This document shows positions 1 to 10,396 of a stretch of DNA of 10,396 nt, in pieces (the stretch's first letter is position 1; the number at the start of each line of letters is the position of its first letter). The DNA comes from a virus. The stretch is taken from UHGV virus genome UHGV-1616493. One strand, 5' to 3'. The position numbers were made by a program, and so were the translations under genes. The notes under the pieces are model-generated. The model saw only the letters and a list, made by a program, of their open reading frames with translations, made no database searches and was not told the origin of the DNA.

Positions 1-17
1 AAGCAATGACCTGGTGG

Positions 18-182
18 TCCGTGACTTCCCTACGCTGGCATTATCCAGATCAGGTAATACGGGTATTTCTCAGCCTTCACAAAGAAGGGCACCCCGAGTC
101 ATGTACTATAAAATCAAAAGCTTGCGATTAATGCTCCTCATTAATCCCTGATCAGGATAGTAATGCCAGCGGGAAGTCTTGT
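18..182. repeat. Imperfect inverted repeat: arms about 18-53 and 148-182 flanking a roughly 94-bp core
   Basis: Left arm gtgacttccctacgctggcattatccagatcagg and the reverse complement of the right arm (cctgatcaggatagtaatgccagcgggaagtc) share GACTTCCC, GCTGGCATTA and CTGATCAGG blocks with small indels. Aligned by eye. Confidence 0.45.
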
Positions 183-1209: not shown

Positions 1210-2226
1210 TTACGCCGCGTCATCCATCGTAATTTTCAAAACGAAGTCTGGACGCATTGGGATCTGAATTTGTGATAGCTCGCTGACCACCTCATAATTC
1301 ATGAACTTATCACGCAGAACGTAATGGTAAGACGGATAAACCGGACCATTAGCAACGTCAGCATGACGGCTCGCCGGAGTCTGGTAAGTCATATAAGGTG
1401 AAAGGTCGCCTTCAACAACATTGGAGAACGTCGCCAGCATGTAGCCTTCACCATCTGCAATGCCGTATAGCGGATCGTCAACCTGAACTACAGTTACGCG
1501 CCCGATGTTGTATCGATCATATGCGCCCAAAGTGTCAGGGAAAATGATGTCACGGGACGTAGCACCAAACAGAGCCGCCTGATATGCGGTTGGGTTGCCT
1601 TGAATGGCGGTGAAAAGACTCGGACTCGCTAGCAGATAAACCTGCTTGATGCTGGAAGACCAGCCACCCAGATTTTTCTTCAGCAGCGTGACAGCGTTCT
1701 GCATCTCAGTAATAACGTTGGCACTGATGCCAGTTTTCACCACAGCAGACGGCTGGTTAATACCCCAGAAGGTTTGCCAGTTCAGATCAGGACCTTCACG
1801 AAGGTGTGTCGCCTCTACAGTATTGTGAAGCAGGCTCTGCGCCATGGCATATTCAACATCACGGCGGGTTTGCAGGTAGTGCTTCAGGGTATGATTAGCA
1901 ACTACATCTTCAGCGGTCATCTGGCGATTTGTTCCCGGCTGACGTTTCCCCTGCCAATCCTGGCTGGTGATGGTTGAGCTGTAGACATGCAGTGGAGCCT
2001 GAACAGTCACGTTAGCCGCTTTAGGGAAGTTTAGACCGGACATTTCAGAACCATAACGGGCAACAGATTTGGTCACTTCACGCTGCACATCTTCCAGTGT
2101 GTCGAGCGCGATGATTTGCGTATCACTTGGACGGCTGGTAAAGATCCCCAGGCTGGACAGAAGGAACCCCTCGCCGCTTGGCTTCACAAACTGACCGGAA
2201 AGGTTAGTAAAATCACTTAATTTCAT
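1210..2226 (-). CDS. Phage major capsid protein, lambda gpE-like (338 aa)
   Basis: Size matches E-family capsid proteins (about 340 aa). It sits 18 nt downstream of a 120-aa decoration-like gene, as in lambdoid D-E pairs. The C-terminal ...PMRPDFVLKITM resembles the ...PDEFVSVQLA end of lambda gpE. GGAG SD upstream of the ATG at 2226. Homology recalled from memory, not searched. Confidence 0.6.
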   Translation of the reverse strand: MKLSDFTNLSGQFVKPSGEGFLLSSLGIFTSRPSDTQIIALDTLEDVQREVTKSVARYGSEMSGLNFPKAANVTVQAPLHVYSSTITSQDWQGKRQPGTNRQMTAEDVVANHTLKHYLQTRRDVEYAMAQSLLHNTVEATHLREGPDLNWQTFWGINQPSAVVKTGISANVITEMQNAVTLLKKNLGGWSSSIKQVYLLASPSLFTAIQGNPTAYQAALFGATSRDIIFPDTLGAYDRYNIGRVTVVQVDDPLYGIADGEGYMLATFSNVVEGDLSPYMTYQTPASRHADVANGPVYPSYHYVLRDKFMNYEVVSELSQIQIPMRPDFVLKITMDDAA

Positions 2227-2244
2227 ATTGTTATCACTCCTTGA

Positions 2245-2607
2245 TTAGATTGCAGTGTTTGCGTCAGCAATGCGGTTGCCTTGCTTAACAAGGGCAGCGT
2301 AAGCAGCATCTTTTGCAGCAGCCGCTACAACCAGACCAGATGGATTGAACACACAGCCACGGTCTGAAATGACCAGGCTACGGGCATCACCAGCGATTTG
2401 ATTTTGCAGAGCTACAGCACAGTTATCAGCATCGGCTGCAACGTATGCCGCGCCAGTGGTCGGGTTAATCACATCACCACAAGTCACATCAGCAGCCAGA
2501 TCAAAGATCACGGTGCGCTTATGAAAGATCGGGCTATCGGTATAAACCAATACATCCTGTGGGGTTTTGCTTTCATGTTCGAATGCCATATTTTGTTGTA
2601 TCTCCAT
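2245..2607 (-). CDS. Head decoration-like protein (120 aa; possibly 113 aa from the second ATG at 2586)
   Basis: Small Ala/Gly/Val-rich protein directly upstream of the capsid gene and translationally close to it; position and size match lambda gpD-type decoration proteins. No strong SD at the first ATG. Confidence 0.45.
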   Translation of the reverse strand: MEIQQNMAFEHESKTPQDVLVYTDSPIFHKRTVIFDLAADVTCGDVINPTTGAAYVAADADNCAVALQNQIAGDARSLVISDRGCVFNPSGLVVAAAAKDAAYAALVKQGNRIADANTAI

Positions 2608-2621
2608 GCAATTTTTATAAT

Positions 2622-2726
2622 CCGGCGAATATGCCGGGTTGTGTTGAAAAAATACCGTCCATCGGACGGCATTCTTTTATTTGTATTCCCAACAGAAAAA
2701 GAGCCGGAGGCAGGAAAACGCCTGCC
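2622..2726. terminator. Cluster of three hairpins directly upstream of the capsid genes; the middle one is a bidirectional intrinsic terminator
   Basis: CCGGC-gaatat-GCCGG (2622-2637); CCGTCC-atc-GGACGG (2655-2669) flanked by CATTCTTTTATTTG on plus and TATTTTTTC on minus; GGCAGG-aaaacg-CCTGCC (2709-2726) followed on minus by a T-rich run. Confidence 0.45.
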
Positions 2727-2760
2727 CCGGTTGGTAGATCATCGGAGATGATGAAATTCA

Positions 2761-2792
2761 CCCGTTTACGGGTTAGCAACATGCGTTGCTAA
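2761..2792. promoter_or_regulatory. Adjacent palindromes, operator-like
   Basis: CCCG-ttta-CGGG (2761-2772) followed by TTAGCAAC-atgc-GTTGCTAA (2773-2792), perfect 8-bp arms with a 4-nt spacer, in the untranslated leader between the 713-aa gene and the capsid genes. Confidence 0.3.
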
Positions 2793-3250
2793 TAGCTTCA
2801 CGATGGTATTTTCTGATGGAGAGATTTGGAAAGCATGATCGGCGGGTCACGCTTCAGGAATGAGGGAGCACAGCAGCGGGAGACCTCATATCTTCGCTGC
2901 CGCACTCAATGCCAGTTTTCGTCTGGCAAGACGGCCTTCCGAGGATGAAAGGCTTTGGCAAATCTCCGATCCAAGGTCGGAGAAAATCTTTTCTGATACA
3001 GCCAGCGGCAATGGCCTAACCTTACCGTGAGAGGGTGCGAATATTGGCTGTATGAGAAAAGGCGCTCTGGGAAAAGCGCACTTTGATTCCTAAGGAGAAG
3101 GGAAAACATTTGGCTGTTGTAATTCACCTTGTATATTATTTTAACACGAATGATTATCATTTGCAACAACAAAAACAATAACATGGCGAATTCAACGGCC
3201 CTCTCTCGTGTGGGCCAATTTGCTGCGCCATTTTCGACGGAACGATGATT

Positions 3251-5392
3251 TTAGTCTGCAATCCCAAGGATGAGGTTATTCTGCGCGTGGTTGTTCTCCC
3301 TTATCTTGGTATCAACCAGCCCTGCGATCTTATCGTCATGGACAAACACATCCATCTGCTGATTAATGTTCGCTTGCCCGGTAACACTGACAGGAATCGG
3401 CTGTCGCAGCGTCATGCTGTCAATTGTCGGAACCGTAAACGTCGGTTGCTGGGGTGTCAGATAGTTCAGGCTAGGAACATTCAACGCTAGCGCTGGATCG
3501 TTATACGCCGTGCCTGAGCCAATATTGCTCGGTGCTGAACTATCCAGCCACGGGTAAATCTGCTTAAGCGTCTGACCGATGCTACGTGGATCAAAGCCTG
3601 TCTTTTCCTTAATCCAATCGGCAGCACCGTTTGCAGATTCATCTACCACGCTCGTATACACCGCATCCGGCAATGTCGCGCCTTTCTTAAGTTCTTCTCC
3701 GACTCGACCAGAGAAGGAGAGAATGTTGGTGGTTAGCTCACCAAGGGCAACGCCGAGGGCATCGGAAATTGGGATCAGTCCAGTCATCTTCTGACGTAGA
3801 GTTTCAGTATTGGCAGCGTACTGCCCCAGGCCTTCAACAAACGAGGCTGAGAAATGATCTGCAAGGCTGGTTTGCACTCGGTTGTACTCAGCACCTAACG
3901 CCGCCAGTTTATCGAGGTTGGCTTGCTGCGCATCAGATAGGGTCCATCCTTCAGAAGAGAGTTGATGCATACGCTGGATAAGTCCCTGCCCCTCATCATT
4001 GAACACTTCGAGGAAGACCGAACCATCATTCACAGCCTCAGCCAGGTGCCGGGTCTGGTTGTCCGTCCATTTGAAAGTTTTCTGCAACTGTTTCAGGTAA
4101 GTGATGAAGGTCGGAAAATCCAGCTTTTGCAGTTCTCCGATCACCTTCTGTGCTACCTTCTGGTTACCGTTGGTGGAGGTCAGCACATTGTTGATGATAT
4201 CTGCGAACTCGCCACCGCCGCTGAAATTCACCTGTCCAGTTTTCTTGTTACGTTTGAAAGAGCCGGTGTTTAACAATTCCCCGGCCTTTTCGGTTGTGTC
4301 CTTGTTGAGGTCAGCCAGCTTGTCAGCACTCAGTGAGTAACCAACACGGCTCATCGAGAGATCCTGAAGTGCAGCGAACTCAAGGTTGCTGATCCCGTAC
4401 TGCTGGAGTTTTTTCACATCGCGAGAGCGCTCAAGGCTTCCCTGGAGGGTCTGACCGACACGAGAAACGCCCATACTACCCACTAACGACGCACCACCAA
4501 TAACACCAGCAGCTGCAAGACCAGCTCTACCACCACGGCTTTCTGTGCGTACACGACCAGCACGAACACCTGCGGCTTTCTGCTCACGGGTCATACGCTG
4601 TTGCAGACGAGCCTGCTTGCGTAATTCGGTGGTGATACGAGCCATTTCGAAGCGGGTCTCTTCAACCGTATAGCGCTCTTCTTTCTGGGCTTTAAGTGCC
4701 TCTTTTGCTGCACTGATGGCTTTGTACCGGGTTGCAACGTCAGCGCCGTTCACGTTTGCCAGAGTCAGAGCGCTACGGCGCAAACTGTTGTAATAAGTCA
4801 CCTCGCGCTTAAGGCCTGCCTCTTTCTCACGCTGACGCTTCTCCTCCAAGGCCATCGCCTTTTTGGTGGCTGCGATGTCAGCAGCAACAGCGCCGTGACC
4901 ACGGTTCATCGCTGCATTTTGACGTGCCACCAGAGATGGATCGGAGTGAACTCCAGGCATGTTGGGATTGTAGGTCATTGCACGGGAGCGACTCGCCTGT
5001 CTCACCTTGTCAGATATCGCTGCTAGTCTGGCATTCTGCCGTGCGGCCTGTTCCTGCTGGGATAACTGACGCGCCTGTAATGAGGTCATTTTATTAGCGT
5101 GGGAGACTGCATCCCGTTCCATTTTGGCTTGTATCTGAGCTTGTTTCTGTTGCTGTTTTGACAATTGTTCAGCCTGGCGTAGCTTCGCTGTCTGGGCTTT
5201 CGCTGCGGCTAGTGCTGCTTTGCCTTCACTCTGGACGGTCCGCTTCTGGGCCTTCTCAAGCGCTTTAGCTGGTTTCTCATGAGCAGCCTTAAGCGAGATA
5301 ATCTTCTTTTTGGCTTTTTGATATGAGGCATCGTCTGTGATCCACGAGATTTCATTAACGGTGCTGGTAACAATCTTATTTGTGCCAGACAT
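3251..5392 (-). CDS. Large coiled-coil protein with a Gly-rich hydrophobic segment (713 aa); tail tape-measure-like, alternatively scaffold or ejection protein
   Basis: The N-terminal roughly 250 aa are rich in A/K/Q/E/R as in coiled coils. The central GLAAAGVIGGASLVGSMGVS segment resembles the Gly-rich hydrophobic patches of tape-measure proteins. The ORF track starts at GTG 5395, but ATG 5392 overlaps the upstream stop as TGATG (translational coupling), with GGGGG upstream. Confidence 0.45.
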   Translation of the reverse strand: MSGTNKIVTSTVNEISWITDDASYQKAKKKIISLKAAHEKPAKALEKAQKRTVQSEGKAALAAAKAQTAKLRQAEQLSKQQQKQAQIQAKMERDAVSHANKMTSLQARQLSQQEQAARQNARLAAISDKVRQASRSRAMTYNPNMPGVHSDPSLVARQNAAMNRGHGAVAADIAATKKAMALEEKRQREKEAGLKREVTYYNSLRRSALTLANVNGADVATRYKAISAAKEALKAQKEERYTVEETRFEMARITTELRKQARLQQRMTREQKAAGVRAGRVRTESRGGRAGLAAAGVIGGASLVGSMGVSRVGQTLQGSLERSRDVKKLQQYGISNLEFAALQDLSMSRVGYSLSADKLADLNKDTTEKAGELLNTGSFKRNKKTGQVNFSGGGEFADIINNVLTSTNGNQKVAQKVIGELQKLDFPTFITYLKQLQKTFKWTDNQTRHLAEAVNDGSVFLEVFNDEGQGLIQRMHQLSSEGWTLSDAQQANLDKLAALGAEYNRVQTSLADHFSASFVEGLGQYAANTETLRQKMTGLIPISDALGVALGELTTNILSFSGRVGEELKKGATLPDAVYTSVVDESANGAADWIKEKTGFDPRSIGQTLKQIYPWLDSSAPSNIGSGTAYNDPALALNVPSLNYLTPQQPTFTVPTIDSMTLRQPIPVSVTGQANINQQMDVFVHDDKIAGLVDTKIRENNHAQNNLILGIAD

Positions 5393-5820
5393 CACACCCC
5401 CTGATTGATATCGTAACCCAGACGCTCAAGCGCGGCGCGTTGTTCAGGTGTTAGCTCATCAAGACTTGCCTTCATCATGAGACTTACCGGACGCAGATTA
5501 GCGCTATAACCTTGGGCTTGGTGGCACAGAGCGATCCCTTTTTCCTTGATGGTTTTACCACTTTTTGGGGCTGGCTCGCTGGCTGTTGCAGTCGAAGCGG
5601 ACAGGTAACTCTGCACCGCCTCCGCCAATGCTTCTTCAGCGGATTTGTTCAGATCTTCCGGTTCGTCTGTTCCTGCGGTCATTGCTTCCCGGATACTGGC
5701 GCGGATTGCTTCAATGTTATTCATATTGTTATGTTTCCTGTAGAGGTCCAGGCCGTCACGAAGCCATTGGAGAACAGCTACCGCTAACGGCAGAAAGGAT
5801 AAATATTCAAATAGGGTCAA
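5392..5820 (-). CDS. Hypothetical protein (142 aa from TTG 5820; alternative ATG at 5724 gives 110 aa)
   Basis: ORF in the same reading frame as the upstream 173-aa ORF, separated from it only by the TAA at 5839-5841. No ATG start at the 5' end; an internal ATG at 5724 has AGGAAA 9 nt upstream. N-terminal hydrophobic stretch, acidic Ala-rich middle. Confidence 0.45.
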   Translation of the reverse strand: MTLFEYLSFLPLAVAVLQWLRDGLDLYRKHNNMNNIEAIRASIREAMTAGTDEPEDLNKSAEEALAEAVQSYLSASTATASEPAPKSGKTIKEKGIALCHQAQGYSANLRPVSLMMKASLDELTPEQRAALERLGYDINQGV

Positions 5821-6374: not shown

Positions 6375-7121
6375 TCAGAAAGGGATCGAGTCATCATAAT
6401 CAAGCGGCAGCTCATCTGCTGGGGCGTTAACCTGTTGTTCTACTGACTCCGGTGCGGGTACATGATAATTTTGAATAAACAGATTCATGCTGTCCTCATC
6501 GCTGCTGATACCATGAGAGAGACAAAACGCTTTTGCTTCTTCATCCAGTCCCCAATTGCGCCATCGCCTCAGCTTGGTGCCTAATTGTTCATCGGTATAC
6601 CTATCAGAAGCGTTCACCGCATCATCATTGGCAGGTACATCAGCATCGACAGGAATATCCACAACAGGTAGGCCGTCTGGTTTTCCAGCAACAGGCGCGG
6701 CAGGTTCCACCACGAAAGATTCCACATCACGTTTCTGCTCATTCTTACCGCTCTCCTCGGTTTCCACTTTTCTATTACTCACCTGCGTGGAATTATGATC
6801 GTCAAGAAAAACCATCAACGATGGATCGAGTTCGACCGGAGAAATTTTGTGTGTTCTCCCCTGCTCTTCCTCAAAAGTGATCATTCCCGCTTCACGAAGC
6901 TTGTTCCTGAAATTACGAACGGCTTCGGGCTTGCAGCCGCAACGTTTACCAATCATGCCAACAGACTCGTAATAAGTTCTGCCTGTTTTGTCATAGCTGT
7001 AAACCAGAGATAGCAAAATTTTCATGTTGCCATTAATGGTCAGGCCGTTGTACTCGGTAAGGTCGAGAATGCTGTATTCAAGTTTTACAAAATCCTTACT
7101 GTCCCGGTTCTGTTTGCTCAT
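6375..7121 (-). CDS. Winged-helix-like DNA-binding protein with acidic C-terminal domain (248 aa); candidate replication initiator or transcriptional activator
   Basis: ATG at 7121 with GGAG and a 6-nt spacer. The N-terminal roughly 100 aa look like an HTH/winged-helix fold (GKRCGCKPEAVRNFRNKLREAGMITFEE); the C-terminal half is acidic and ends ...DELPLDYDDSIPF. Overlaps the upstream 67-aa gene by 26 nt. Confidence 0.55.
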   Translation of the reverse strand: MSKQNRDSKDFVKLEYSILDLTEYNGLTINGNMKILLSLVYSYDKTGRTYYESVGMIGKRCGCKPEAVRNFRNKLREAGMITFEEEQGRTHKISPVELDPSLMVFLDDHNSTQVSNRKVETEESGKNEQKRDVESFVVEPAAPVAGKPDGLPVVDIPVDADVPANDDAVNASDRYTDEQLGTKLRRWRNWGLDEEAKAFCLSHGISSDEDSMNLFIQNYHVPAPESVEQQVNAPADELPLDYDDSIPF

Positions 7122-7299
7122 TCTGTTCTCCGTAAAGTGTCGCCTTGCTGGCTAATGCTGGTTTGATGTCTGGTGTGTTGTCGAAAATGTTCGCGGCAGT
7201 CTCCAAGATTTCATTACAGAGCCGTGCCAGGGGCTTGTCCTGCCTTTTGGCCTCAGCTAGTAGAGCCTGATAAACGTGCTGTTGAAATTTGATGTTCAT
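7096..7299 (-). CDS. Small ribbon-helix-helix-like putative transcriptional regulator (67 aa)
   Basis: ATG at 7299 preceded by GAGGAGG. The N-terminal pattern (beta-strand-like NIKFQQHVYQ, then two short helices LLAEAKRQ / LARLCNEILETAANIF) fits Arc/MetJ/CopG-type RHH proteins. Confidence 0.5.
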   Translation of the reverse strand: MNIKFQQHVYQALLAEAKRQDKPLARLCNEILETAANIFDNTPDIKPALASKATLYGEQNEQTEPGQ

Positions 7300-7386: not shown

Positions 7387-7833
7387 TTAGACTGCGGTTG
7401 CGGTCGGGAAGTCACCCGCACAGGTGTAACCGTAGGATTCCAGACGTTCCACACCATCAGTGGCGATCAAGAGCAAGATCACCTGTTCTGGTGTCAGGTC
7501 CAGATTCAGTTTTTCTCTATATAGCTCGCGGTAGCCCTGTAACACAGGATTCAGGATTTGCGTTAAGGAATTACCCTCAGCATATTTATTGCTCAGAGGC
7601 TTCAGCACCGTCTTAACCACTCGTGCCTGCTTCGCTTTCTTCCGCGCCTGCTTCAGGATTTGCAGGCAGACGGCGATCTGAGGAAGTCGAGCATGTACAG
7701 CGTCTGCCCCGCCGTTTCTACTAATGAAGGCCCACAAAGCTGATTTGGTGTATTTGCCGTTCAGGATGAGATCAGCGATCTGCTCGCCTGTCATAGTGGT
7801 CAGGTCGAGACGTTGGGATTTTGGTTTATTCAT
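7387..7833 (-). CDS. Hypothetical protein (148 aa), first gene of the minus-strand array
   Basis: ATG at 7833 with GGAG and a 6-nt spacer; preceded by a long AT-rich untranslated region. Predicted helical and basic; no family recognised. Confidence 0.55.
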   Translation of the reverse strand: MNKPKSQRLDLTTMTGEQIADLILNGKYTKSALWAFISRNGGADAVHARLPQIAVCLQILKQARKKAKQARVVKTVLKPLSNKYAEGNSLTQILNPVLQGYRELYREKLNLDLTPEQVILLLIATDGVERLESYGYTCAGDFPTATAV

Positions 7834-8049
7834 TGGGTTCTCCGTTCTGTTAAAAGAATTATTCGCGGAGGTTCTATTTGTAACCCATTTTGTATTGCCG
7901 TGAGGTTGACAAGGAATGTCGTGATGACGGCAGAATTATTCGAGGATTCGTAGGTAAATCATTACCCTACTAAAATCTATTGTATCAGATTTGTTTGTAA
8001 ATAGCAATCATTATCATGTAGCATTTTATAATGCATAATAATCACCATA

Positions 8050-8078
8050 ACATTACAAGTTTAAAAAATCTTTGTCAA
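8050..8078 (-). promoter_or_regulatory. Candidate sigma70 promoter driving the minus-strand array
   Basis: On the minus strand: TTGACA (8078-8073), 17-bp A/T-rich spacer, TAATGT (8055-8050). It lies in an AT-rich zone (about 7960-8080) with several imperfect palindromes, roughly 210 nt upstream of the first gene. Confidence 0.35.
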
Positions 8079-8286
8079 TAGTGCTAGATCGTTCTGTGAC
8101 GCGTTCTGCGGGGACTCGTCGTTATAGCAGTACCATCGTGTTACCCACACCATTTAAACGCCGTAGAGAGGCGCTGAGGAAGTCAGTTAGACAACCCGCG
8201 CCGCCCCGGAGTGAACCGGACAGATGCAAAGCAGTCCTCTCCGCCGTGCTCCGATCCACATATGGCGAACAAGTTCGCAGCTTCCA

Positions 8287-8470
8287 CACAGAGTGAGAGC
8301 GTAGCTCTCTGGCGTAGCCTGTCGGGTTACCCGAGTCACAGAGCGTAGCGATGTGTTAACGAGGGTTAGAAGGTCACGAGATGGCGCGGCTGTTTCACGT
8401 CAGCAAAGGTGAGCTTCTTACCACAAACATATCTGAAGTGGCTGACCAGCCATTGCAGAGCGGAGCGATG
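8287..8470. repeat. Dispersed GAGCGTAGC-type motif copies in a GC-rich non-coding block
   Basis: CAGAGCGTAGCGATG (8339-8353) and CAGAGCGGAGCGATG (8456-8470) match 14/15. GAGAGC-gta-GCTCTC forms a perfect hairpin at 8295-8309, and GGCGTAGC occurs at 8311-8318. Confidence 0.45.
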
Positions 8471-8581
8471 CAGAAGCATCACTATTAAAACTAACAGAAT
8501 GACCAACCGTCATTCCGTGCTCTCGACCTGGAGGTACTTTTCTTATCAGTTCTTTTATGGAGATTGTTATTTATTATTATT

Positions 8582-8672
8582 GTGCTCGAAAATCGACTAC
8601 CCCCTACTCGAAAATCGTGCAGGTAGGTGCTCGAAAATCGAGGGGGTGGGTACACGAAAATCGTGCAGGTAT
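8582..8672. repeat. Iteron-like array: four copies of CTCGAAAATCG phased at 22-23 bp, next to an AT-rich tract
   Basis: Copies at 8585-8595, 8607-8617, 8630-8640 and 8653-8663 (the last is CACGAAAATCG). Alternate units carry TCGTGCAGGTA (8615-8625, 8661-8671); the others carry inverted ACCCCCT (8599-8605) and AGGGGGT (8641-8647). AT-rich tract at 8541-8583. Confidence 0.6.
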
Positions 8673-9964
8673 CACCGGGTGAGAATTTTCCAAGTCATCC
8701 AAGCGACCAACGCACCGATGAAAACTTCTGGTTTGATATGTCCGCGTCATGCTTCAATGGCACAATCGACGGCAACACCTGAGGCGGTCCAGGCACCTGA
8801 TCCGCTCCGAGAATTGATCATCTCCCTCCCCCGCTTTCATCTGAAAATACCGACCATTCTCCGCGCTGGCTGAAGATTGGCAACCCTATACTAGTTTTCT
8901 GTGAAAATTTGGTGGATGATCTTTATCATTGGCTATCCTGCGAACAAAGTAGATTAAATACACCTCAAATAGCCTATAATCCGTAGTTAATCATGCTAAA
9001 GTGGTCACTAAACGTACAAATCACAAGTTTGTACCTATGGGCGTTATGGTGTGGTGCATGCAGCGAAGCCAGTAATGGCGCGGCCTAGGCGAATCCGCCA
9101 ATTGAATGGGTGCTAAACACAACCCACTTTCTGAACCATCTTTTTACAAAAAATAAAAAAGACACATTAAAACTAAAACAGATGTCCTCTGGTGGTTCCT
9201 GTATCGCGCTGTGGGATGTCGTGGATTATCGGTACGTCAGTTTACATCTGGGGGGATAACGCACTGTAGCGCTTCTGGTGGAGCGTAGAAGGGATTGGTG
9301 GGTTGGCTGTTTACATTGTTTTGGGAAATGGTACGAAACAGTGGCGGTCAGGCTCGTGAATATCACCAGGTGATGGCAGACCTTCAGCCCGTTGTGGTAA
9401 CGTCGGTGTAGTGGCTTTGTGTCTGCTGGTAAACAGAAAAAAGTGCTTTTATGGCGTTTGACACACTGGCAGCCTCAAAGGTCTGAAACCTGAAATTGTG
9501 TGGTGACCAGGCAAACTCATCCAAAATCCTTGAACAAGAGAACTCACCTCGAATCCTCCTGAATGCTTTCCTTCTGTTGGTGAAATCGCTGTTGTGTACC
9601 CAGCTTCGCGTCAACGTTCCGAAAAGTAATACCTGACCATTCCAGTCAAGTACTTATAAGAACCATTATGTTAAATAGACCAGAAAACGAACAGTAGAAT
9701 GCCCTATTGCGGCAAGTTTTCCCTGCTGTGATGCTCTACGGGATGAAGTGGTGAAATACGTTACTGGGCCTGTCGGCTCTGCGATATTTCAGCAAGAAGA
9801 TAAGAAATTATTGAGGGATCGTCTGTCACGTCAGGCACCTGGCCCAGAGAGCCGTAAGATATTTTCAGCAAGAGCATGTAAGCTGGATCGTCAAATAGCA
9901 GGGACATCCATGAGGTGGGGTAGATGAGTTGCCGGGAATTTTACCCGGCAGACCGTATGACAGA

Positions 9965-10387
9965 TTAGTTAAAGGTGCAGTTTCCGCCAGACGGTGCACC
10001 GATGAAAAACTGCATCTTTTCGCAAGTCACGGTGATCTTCTGGCCCTTTTCCAATTTCGACGCTTTCGCCTTTTCTGAATCAGACATACTCAGACTGACT
10101 GGCATGAAGCGATTACCGCTTTCAAGTTTAAGAACTACATCATCCGTGAAATTTTTTGTTATGTCCTGTACAGTTCCGGTTACTTCCACCTTACGACCAC
10201 CAATTTTGTCATCGGCTGCAACCTCGTTAGCTTTATAAAGTTCAGCCAGAGCTAGTGCTTTTGTACGGTAAATTGCATCATCAGAAGCTGGCACTTTGGG
10301 TTTACTATCGGCAACCTGCGATTGTTCCGGATTAGTCATACTAGGGAAGGTGCGAACAAGTTCCTGATATGAGATCATCATATTCAT
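9965..10387 (-). CDS. OB-fold (tRNA_anti-like type) domain protein; N-terminus may lie beyond the window edge
   Basis: The motif pattern ...LYKANEVAADDKIGGRKVEVTGTVQDI...KLEKGQKITVTCEK... matches my memory of the tRNA_anti-like OB-fold family. The frame stays open from the ATG at 10387 to the window edge at 10396, so the real start may be upstream. Confidence 0.5.
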   Translation of the reverse strand: MNMMISYQELVRTFPSMTNPEQSQVADSKPKVPASDDAIYRTKALALAELYKANEVAADDKIGGRKVEVTGTVQDITKNFTDDVVLKLESGNRFMPVSLSMSDSEKAKASKLEKGQKITVTCEKMQFFIGAPSGGNCTFN

Positions 10388-10396
10388 CCGGAGCGC

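Follow-up and report, generated by a model that had tools for sequence, protein, structure and literature searches.

Positions 8494-8665 of the window, by which we mean the whole 10,396-nucleotide stretch of DNA that was analyzed, are probably the oriV of a satellite-like integrative element of about 13.3 kb, and the protein encoded at 6375-7121 is probably its initiator (hereafter Rep). The region carries four phased, dyad-symmetric repeats next to an AT-rich tract, and across related elements the sequence of such repeats changes together with the N-terminal domain of Rep. The design is most likely a familiar one, that of an iteron origin served by a winged-helix initiator, and it is found here in a family of elements that is itself uncharacterized.

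A phased repeat array adjoins an AT-rich tract

Four 13-bp sites with dyad symmetry lie within 8585-8665, their starts spaced by 22, 23 and 23 bp. They are iteron 1 (8585-8597, CTCGAAAATCGAC), iteron 2 (8607-8619, CTCGAAAATCGTG, after which a duplicated CAGGTA flank follows), iteron 3 (8630-8642, CTCGAAAATCGAG) and iteron 4 (8653-8665, CACGAAAATCGTG), given here without strand. Their consensus is C[T/A]CGAAAATCG[A/T][G/C], a near-palindrome centered on AAA, and the 5-bp arms are perfect in iteron 3 (CTCGA/TCGAG) and iteron 4 (CACGA/TCGTG), each of which is thereby a perfect 5+3+5 palindrome. At the level of exact repeats, the 11-mer CTCGAAAATCG begins at 8585, 8607 and 8630 and recurs with one mismatch at 8653 (CACGAAAATCG), while no further copy with zero or one mismatch was found elsewhere in the 10.4-kb window. 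When the window was simulated 40 times with a first-order Markov model, two copies (at most one mismatch) within 100 bp was the most that any 11-mer attained, as compared to the four observed. A 7-bp inverted pair, ACCCCCT/AGGGGGT, occupies 8599-8605 and 8641-8647, and TCGTGCAGGTA is present at both 8615 and 8661; therefore, a unit of approximately 45 bp is repeated twice. A preliminary description of this DNA had reported four phased 11-bp repeats beside an AT-rich tract, together with the nested inverted repeat, the duplicated sequence and the doubled unit, and the exact positions, spacing and simulations bear out each of these details.

The AT-rich tract (8536-8581), presumed to be the DNA-unwinding element, lies on the Rep-proximal side of the iterons. 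It is 46 bp long, 80% A+T and T-skewed (59% T on the plus strand), and its AT-richness is matched by only 0.27% of the 45-bp windows across the sequence. Immediately to its left is a hairpin with a 10-bp stem (8494-8518), whose sequence varies among relatives but which is kept in all of them, and which has a terminator-like score on the minus strand. Between hairpin and tract is a conserved junction motif (8525-8534), GACCTGGAGG in the window and GACCTTAAGG in relatives. The putative origin is flanked by a conserved non-coding block (8424-8495) that retains about 83-88% identity between elements with unrelated iterons. The array shows two general hallmarks of an iteron origin, namely at least three direct repeats at about two helical turns and an adjoining AT-rich unwinding element. 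DnaA boxes are common, if not universal, in such origins, and none was found within approximately 200 bp of the array, which is a point against the origin reading. With at most one mismatch to TTWTNCACA, the closest candidates lie at 8141 and 8900, and over the whole window such matches are no more frequent than chance would give, their total count being below the shuffle mean.

Two other segments in the vicinity are conserved. A G-rich non-coding block (9112-9381, extending to 9676 in some relatives) shows 77-90% identity across elements with unrelated flanks and might serve as a cis site, for packaging or otherwise; for RNA structure in 9200-9390, the RNAalifold consensus was weak (-9.7 kcal/mol). 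The second, at 8185-8528, is a hairpin-rich and GC-rich segment between the operon promoter region and the putative origin. It folds somewhat better than shuffled sequences on both strands (z of -2.8 and -2.2), and it yielded no clear covariation, the covariation term being unfavorable.

The element and its hosts

Positions 7800-10000 of the window are 100% identical to two E. coli chromosomes. Relatives occur in 40 of 5,426 complete E. coli genomes, as well as in Enterobacter, Klebsiella, Citrobacter, Cronobacter and other genera. In NZ_CP123310 the element spans about 13.3 kb and is bracketed by a pair of thiM TPP riboswitches, and one of the two corresponds to window positions 10-106. The duplication at both element ends is seen in locus L001 at 12211-12307 and 25580-25676. 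The element is integrated in the thiM leader, regenerating the riboswitch, and this att site is unusual in comparison to the tRNA sites used by its relatives. An Rfam search at E values up to 1 returned only this riboswitch (10-106) plus matches at chance level. The relatives integrate at tRNA genes and carry other integrases and cargo such as DarT/NADAR, AbiTii and GNAT, a pattern typical of phage satellites. Stand-alone contigs of approximately 13 kb were considered as evidence for a circular episome and rejected, their ends being a 26-nt tRNA/att repeat.

The core genes of the element are all on the minus strand. In order, they encode a 148-aa protein (7387-7833), a 67-aa ribbon-helix-helix-like (RHH) protein (7096-7299) that overlaps the start of rep, the 248-aa Rep (6375-7121), a 173-aa protein, a 142-aa ORF for which the reference genome annotation gives a 110-aa protein, a 714-aa protein whose matches are tape-measure-like, a lambda-D-like decoration protein and a lambda-E-like major capsid protein. 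The structural genes (capsid, decoration and tape-measure-like) fall within 1210-5395, and identity of the capsid protein to its counterparts in Pseudomonas and Pectobacterium phages of approximately 98 kb is no more than about 24%. We found no portal, protease, terminase, helicase or primase gene in the element, and no ParA/ParB genes. Structural genes without portal, protease or terminase fit none of the gene sets of P4, PICI, cf-PICI or PLE, and our literature search found no description of this element family or its replicon.

Upstream of the operon, a stretch of about 2.1 kb (7834-9964) lacks any annotated gene, and it is here that the repeats are located. It includes an AT-rich promoter region (7840-8080) upstream of the RHH gene, in which AGAATTATTCG repeats occur at 7855 and 7932, 77 bp apart; the equivalent region of relatives contains two to three TTGACAAAG repeats, which may be operators. 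At the right end of the window, 10342-10396 is 100% identical to an IS5 end, a sequence that adjoins insH in phage RCS47 and recurs in thousands of plasmids. This IS5 end interrupts the gene for an OB-fold protein that is intact (250 aa) in both of the identical reference genomes.

Related loci share the layout but not the repeat sequence

Relatives were collected one protein at a time through contigs encoding homologues, and those loci that included upstream sequence were compared by anchoring on the conserved block at 8424-8495. Two additional scans of genome contigs with the conserved Rep linker produced 106 pattern matches, none of which was confirmed by tblastn. The 16 related loci have a common layout at a common place. 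In every one with upstream sequence the order is conserved block, hairpin, GACCT..AGG motif, AT tract and two to four repeats, with repeat starts 21-25 bp apart, or 33-44 bp in some arrays. The AT tract, of approximately 45 bp and 69-84% A+T, directly abuts the repeats wherever it was measured (13 of 13 loci).

The repeats themselves fall into at least six types that are unrelated between groups. Type A, with four copies of CTCGAAAATCGAG at 22-23 bp, is found in the window and L002, and its core is kept in L013; together with L016 these loci make up an A/A'/A'' group that shares CTCGAAAAYCGA. Type B (L004 and L008) consists of palindromic units of about 32 bp spaced by 44 bp, and type B' (L018) of four AGAAGACAC repeats at 21-22 bp. 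Types C and C' (L005, L009, L010 and L019) have four GTTAAGRNTCTTTACYAAYGG repeats at 23-24 bp, type D (L003, L006 and L007) has three TCATCGGTAACGGTTAC repeats at 24 and 33 bp, and type E (L011) has three CCACTGAAGAAAG repeats at 25 and 35 bp. In types B, C and C' a conserved CTCTGRCAGAAGACACC motif, identical to the B' iteron, is present once, just to the right of each locus's own iterons. The preliminary description had read the array as an iteron-type origin and had suggested a comparison with the origins of related elements; that comparison lends the reading support, since every related locus examined has an AT tract and phased repeats in this position, and the layout is common to all 16.

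The pairing of Rep and repeats is also found beyond elements of this gene content. For example, a Yersinia enterocolitica island without the capsid module encodes a type A'' Rep and has, about 500 bp upstream of rep, an AT tract with three CTCGAAAAYYGA repeats at 22-23 bp (individual copies CTCGAAAACCGA, CTCGAAAATCGG and CTCGAAAACTGA). Retention of the pairing by this capsid-less island indicates that Rep and origin act together as a portable unit. An Edwardsiella island contains a degenerate version of the arrangement.

To the right of the array the loci differ in gene content. In most relatives the array ends approximately 70 bp upstream of a rightward gene for a 123-aa protein (about 67 bp in L003, L006 and others). 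In L004, L005, L011 and L018 the region equivalent to about 8700-9960 holds this gene along with a short (184-206 aa) gene with a Phage_integrase domain, as it does in many relatives. Neither the 123-aa gene nor the 190-aa integrase-like gene of relatives is present in the window.

These comparisons also bear on whether the array has a function at all. It might instead be the product of a recent tandem duplication, the remnant of an insertion sequence, or a repeat inside an unannotated gene, and there are features that would fit such an origin: the unit of about 45 bp is indeed duplicated, and a 154-codon ORF (8409-8873) spans the region in both the window and L002 and is open in a 91%-identical relative. 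The same ORF is closed in two more distant relatives, L013 and L016, which keep the same repeats. The array is thus not within a conserved gene, and we rejected it as a gene-internal repeat. Furthermore, in L013 and L016 the iteron core is conserved while the spacers have diverged, and in all relatives this site is taken by an analogous array of other sequence. When the whole window was compared by megablast with the phage and plasmid collections, matches were confined to its ends (1-197 and 10341-10396) and did not include the array, and the sole insertion sequence in the window is the IS5 end, away from the array. The comparative data have therefore largely refuted the idea of a non-functional repeat, which we now consider to have next to no probability; the caveat raised at the outset, that the array might prove to be part of an insertion sequence or gene, is not borne out.

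The repeat type follows the N-terminal domain of Rep

Across the 16 loci, with at least six types represented, the repeat type and the type of the Rep N-terminal region (about 100 residues) are perfectly concordant at the level of sequence. Pairwise identities among ten loci showed that the repeat type tracks the Rep N-terminal domain and no other protein or segment. Type C and type D loci, for instance, encode 142-aa proteins with 99-100% identity. Identity of the small RHH-like proteins is 85% for A against E and 93% for C against B, and the Rep C-termini are 96-99% identical among types A, B, C and D; the 173-aa proteins likewise do not track the repeat type. An intermediate case is provided by L013, in which the Rep N-domain is 67-70% identical and the iteron core is retained with changed spacers. 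Sliding-identity comparisons (the window against L011, and L003 against L005) showed that the diverged patches corresponding to the Rep N-domain and the origin are separated by 0.9-1.4 kb of DNA that is 55-99% identical. Therefore, the two patches are co-selected rather than inherited as a single block. The preliminary description had put forward the winged-helix protein as a candidate binding partner of the array, and covariation of the repeats with its N-terminal domain alone argues for exactly this pairing. As judged from these sequence comparisons, codons 11-106 of Rep would decide which iteron is recognized.

The covariation also speaks to the possibility that the array is a packaging site (pac/cos-type), a role that the preliminary description had allowed for, or that it is a partition centromere; it would then be bound by the small terminase of a helper phage or by a ParB-like protein. 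Terminase and centromere sites are often phased repeats, and an element with capsid genes and no terminase needs some packaging signal. However, near-identical structural modules are combined with unrelated repeat types, the type tracking the element's own Rep N-domain; the Yersinia island lacks capsid genes and keeps the Rep-repeat pair; and the element encodes neither ParA/ParB nor a terminase. We therefore regard packaging or partition as a very improbable role for the array, and the origin reading as the one that the covariation favors.

Rep resembles replication initiators

An AlphaFold2 model of Rep contains a predicted winged helix at residues 11-106 (6804-7091, minus strand; pLDDT about 70-83), composed of three helices and a beta-hairpin wing. 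Residues 107-173, which include an acidic/proline linker, are disordered in the model, residues 174-222 form a confident three-helix bundle, and the tail is again disordered. Rep has approximately 108 homologues. The family as a whole is modular, with several unrelated N-terminal domains of about 100 residues, a conserved acidic/proline linker and several C-terminal domains. PHROG matches were obtained for 23 of 26 family members (best E 2.5e-10), and the function-annotated PHROGs that they matched were all replication initiators or DnaD-like loaders. The E values for the Rep of the window ranged from 5.6e-6 to 6e-4, and a copy 99-100% identical to it (P0002) matched a DnaD-like loader family at 4e-6 and an O-like family at 2e-4; matches of the family to PHROGs named 'O-like' were weak only. 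Pfam gave a sub-threshold HTH_36 and, in type D, DUF6945. In Foldseek searches of the PDB the top matches to the Rep model were RepA_N plasmid initiators (4pt7, 4pql, 5kbj and 4pta).

At the sequence level, none of the 26 family members matched the Pfam families Phage_rep_O or Rep_3, nor the RepA_N signature (PF06970) at E values up to 0.01. Comparison with lambda O by hhalign revealed no homology (probability 0.1), no sequence relatives of Rep were found in the PDB, and NCBIfam gave no match for Rep or its neighbors other than to the SSB-like tail of one homologue. Rep types A, B and C had no tblastn match in 50,697 phage records and type A had none in 72,556 plasmid records. An autonomous replicon with this Rep is therefore not known, which also counts against the origin reading. 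By its architecture and its family-level sequence matches, Rep can be described as initiator-like, and the predicted winged helix and the exclusively replication-related PHROG matches strengthen the earlier proposal that it is the partner of the array.

The C-terminus of Rep (window 6375-6410, minus strand) reads ...LPLDYDDSIPF, close to the E. coli SSB tip ...PMDFDDDIPF, which docks PriA, chi, DnaG and other partners. Endings of IPF, PPF, IPY or ISF are seen in 17 of the 26 homologues, and the tail of one homologue aligns with the last part of the SSB model in NCBIfam (E 0.009).

By fold, the Rep domain is indistinguishable from MarR/ArsR-type regulators. In principle, Rep could be a transcription factor and the array a set of operators controlling a neighboring promoter with no role in replication. 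In relatives the target would be the rightward 123-aa gene, and in the window a non-coding transcript. The position of the last repeat, about 67-70 bp upstream of the 123-aa gene in L003, L006 and most relatives, would suit such a role, and iteron-binding initiators commonly double as repressors. However, the window and L002 keep the array in the absence of the 123-aa gene, and the AT tract is conserved beside the repeats in all loci. In addition, the sequence-family matches of Rep are only to replication initiators, and its three-part build (N-terminal DNA-binding domain, linker and swappable C-terminal recruiting domain) with an SSB-like tail is that of an initiator. A purely regulatory array, which the preliminary description had also allowed for, is thus unlikely, and like the packaging alternative it fits the covariation less well than an origin does.

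A model for initiation and its implications

We infer that replication takes place at the array, and that an origin there could operate as follows. Rep would be made from the long leftward operon that encodes the 148-aa protein, the RHH protein, Rep and then the capsid genes. Rep dimers would bind the four dyad-symmetric iterons through the N-terminal winged helix; the iterons are approximately two helical turns apart, so the dimers are proposed to lie on roughly one face of the DNA. The resulting nucleoprotein complex, helped by the phased A-tracts at the site centers, would strain and open the 46-bp AT tract. The C-terminal three-helix bundle and the SSB-like ...DYDDSIPF tip may then recruit helicase-loading or priming proteins of the host or of a helper phage, a step that is proposed because the element has no recognizable helicase or primase. 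The RepA of PLE, for comparison, needs its helper.

A broader reading joins several of these threads. The elements might represent an undescribed class of Enterobacteriaceae phage satellites (with lambda-E-like capsid, D-like decoration and tape-measure-like genes, and no portal or terminase) in which a two-piece, exchangeable cassette of origin and Rep N-domain, of at least six types, diversifies under incompatibility or helper counter-defence as in PLE, and in which the initiator hijacks the host SSB interactome (PriA, the chi subunit of DNA polymerase III and DnaG) through its ...DYDDSIPF mimic and so loads a replisome without DnaA or a helicase of its own. Taken as a whole, this combination is less likely than not.

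More immediately, the analysis supplies a concrete candidate origin and initiator for an uncharacterized family of integrative elements of approximately 13 kb, which carry capsid genes and, in relatives, anti-phage cargo (DarT/NADAR and AbiTii). The matched pairs of iteron and winged helix, at least six of them on near-identical backbones, form a natural panel for studying the coevolution of specificity and origin, and the same panel should be useful for asking by what means satellites that reside together escape incompatibility. The SSB-tip mimic at the end of Rep points to a simple route to replisome recruitment.

Comparison with known replication systems

On our best reading, the array would work in the manner of oriλ with its O protein and of the RepA/ori module of the Vibrio PLE satellites. 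Like the array, oriλ has four dyad-symmetric iterons with an A-rich center (18 bp each; TCCCTCAAAACGAGGGA), their starts 20, 24 and 23 bp apart, flanked by an AT-rich tract of about 40 bp, and lambda O is built like Rep, its DNA-binding domain at the N-terminus being joined by a flexible linker to a recruiting domain at the C-terminus. In lambdoid phages, moreover, the O N-domain and the iterons covary. The two systems differ in that oriλ is inside the O gene, whereas the array is intergenic and located 1.45 kb upstream of rep with two genes between; and lambda has P, whereas the element has no lambda-P-like gene and Rep no detected sequence homology to O.

Plasmids of the Rep_3 group (pSC101 RepA, F RepE, R6K pi and P1 RepA) have direct repeats spaced by about 22 bp next to an AT-rich unwinding element and a plasmid-encoded winged-helix initiator, and the array resembles them in the spacing of its repeats and in the adjoining tract. 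Rep_3 proteins contain two tandem winged-helix domains and bind each iteron as a monomer, and DnaA boxes are normal in their origins. In contrast, Rep has a single winged helix and a three-helix bundle in the model, its sites are dyad-symmetric, and no DnaA box is nearby. SaPI/PICI origins also have iterons around an AT-rich region. In PICIs the origin directly follows the gene for the initiator, a primase or helicase (Pri-Rep) protein, whereas neither activity is predicted for Rep.

The best Foldseek matches to the Rep model belong to the RepA_N initiators of the staphylococcal multiresistance plasmids pSK41 and pTZ2162. The iterons of RepA_N initiators are typically semi-palindromic with arms converging on a poly-A tract, those of the staphylococcal proteins being inverted repeats of this kind (PMC7145576), and the array has the same form (CTCGA-AAA-TCGAG). 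The RepA of the Vibrio cholerae PLE satellite is a member of this RepA_N family, with a DNA-binding winged helix at its N-terminus and a C-terminal domain that has no known partner; the iterons of PLE are semi-palindromic and lie away from repA, in a long non-coding region rich in repeats, and PLE encodes no helicase or primase (PMC7145576). PLE variants exchange matched RepA/origin modules (PMC8263062). The PLE iterons are about 30 bp and three in number, compared with four of 13 bp here, no sequence similarity was found between the two, and they differ in host clade, integrase type and gene content. Nevertheless, the element is like PLE in being an integrative satellite with an origin apart from the initiator gene, a winged-helix initiator and neither helicase nor primase.
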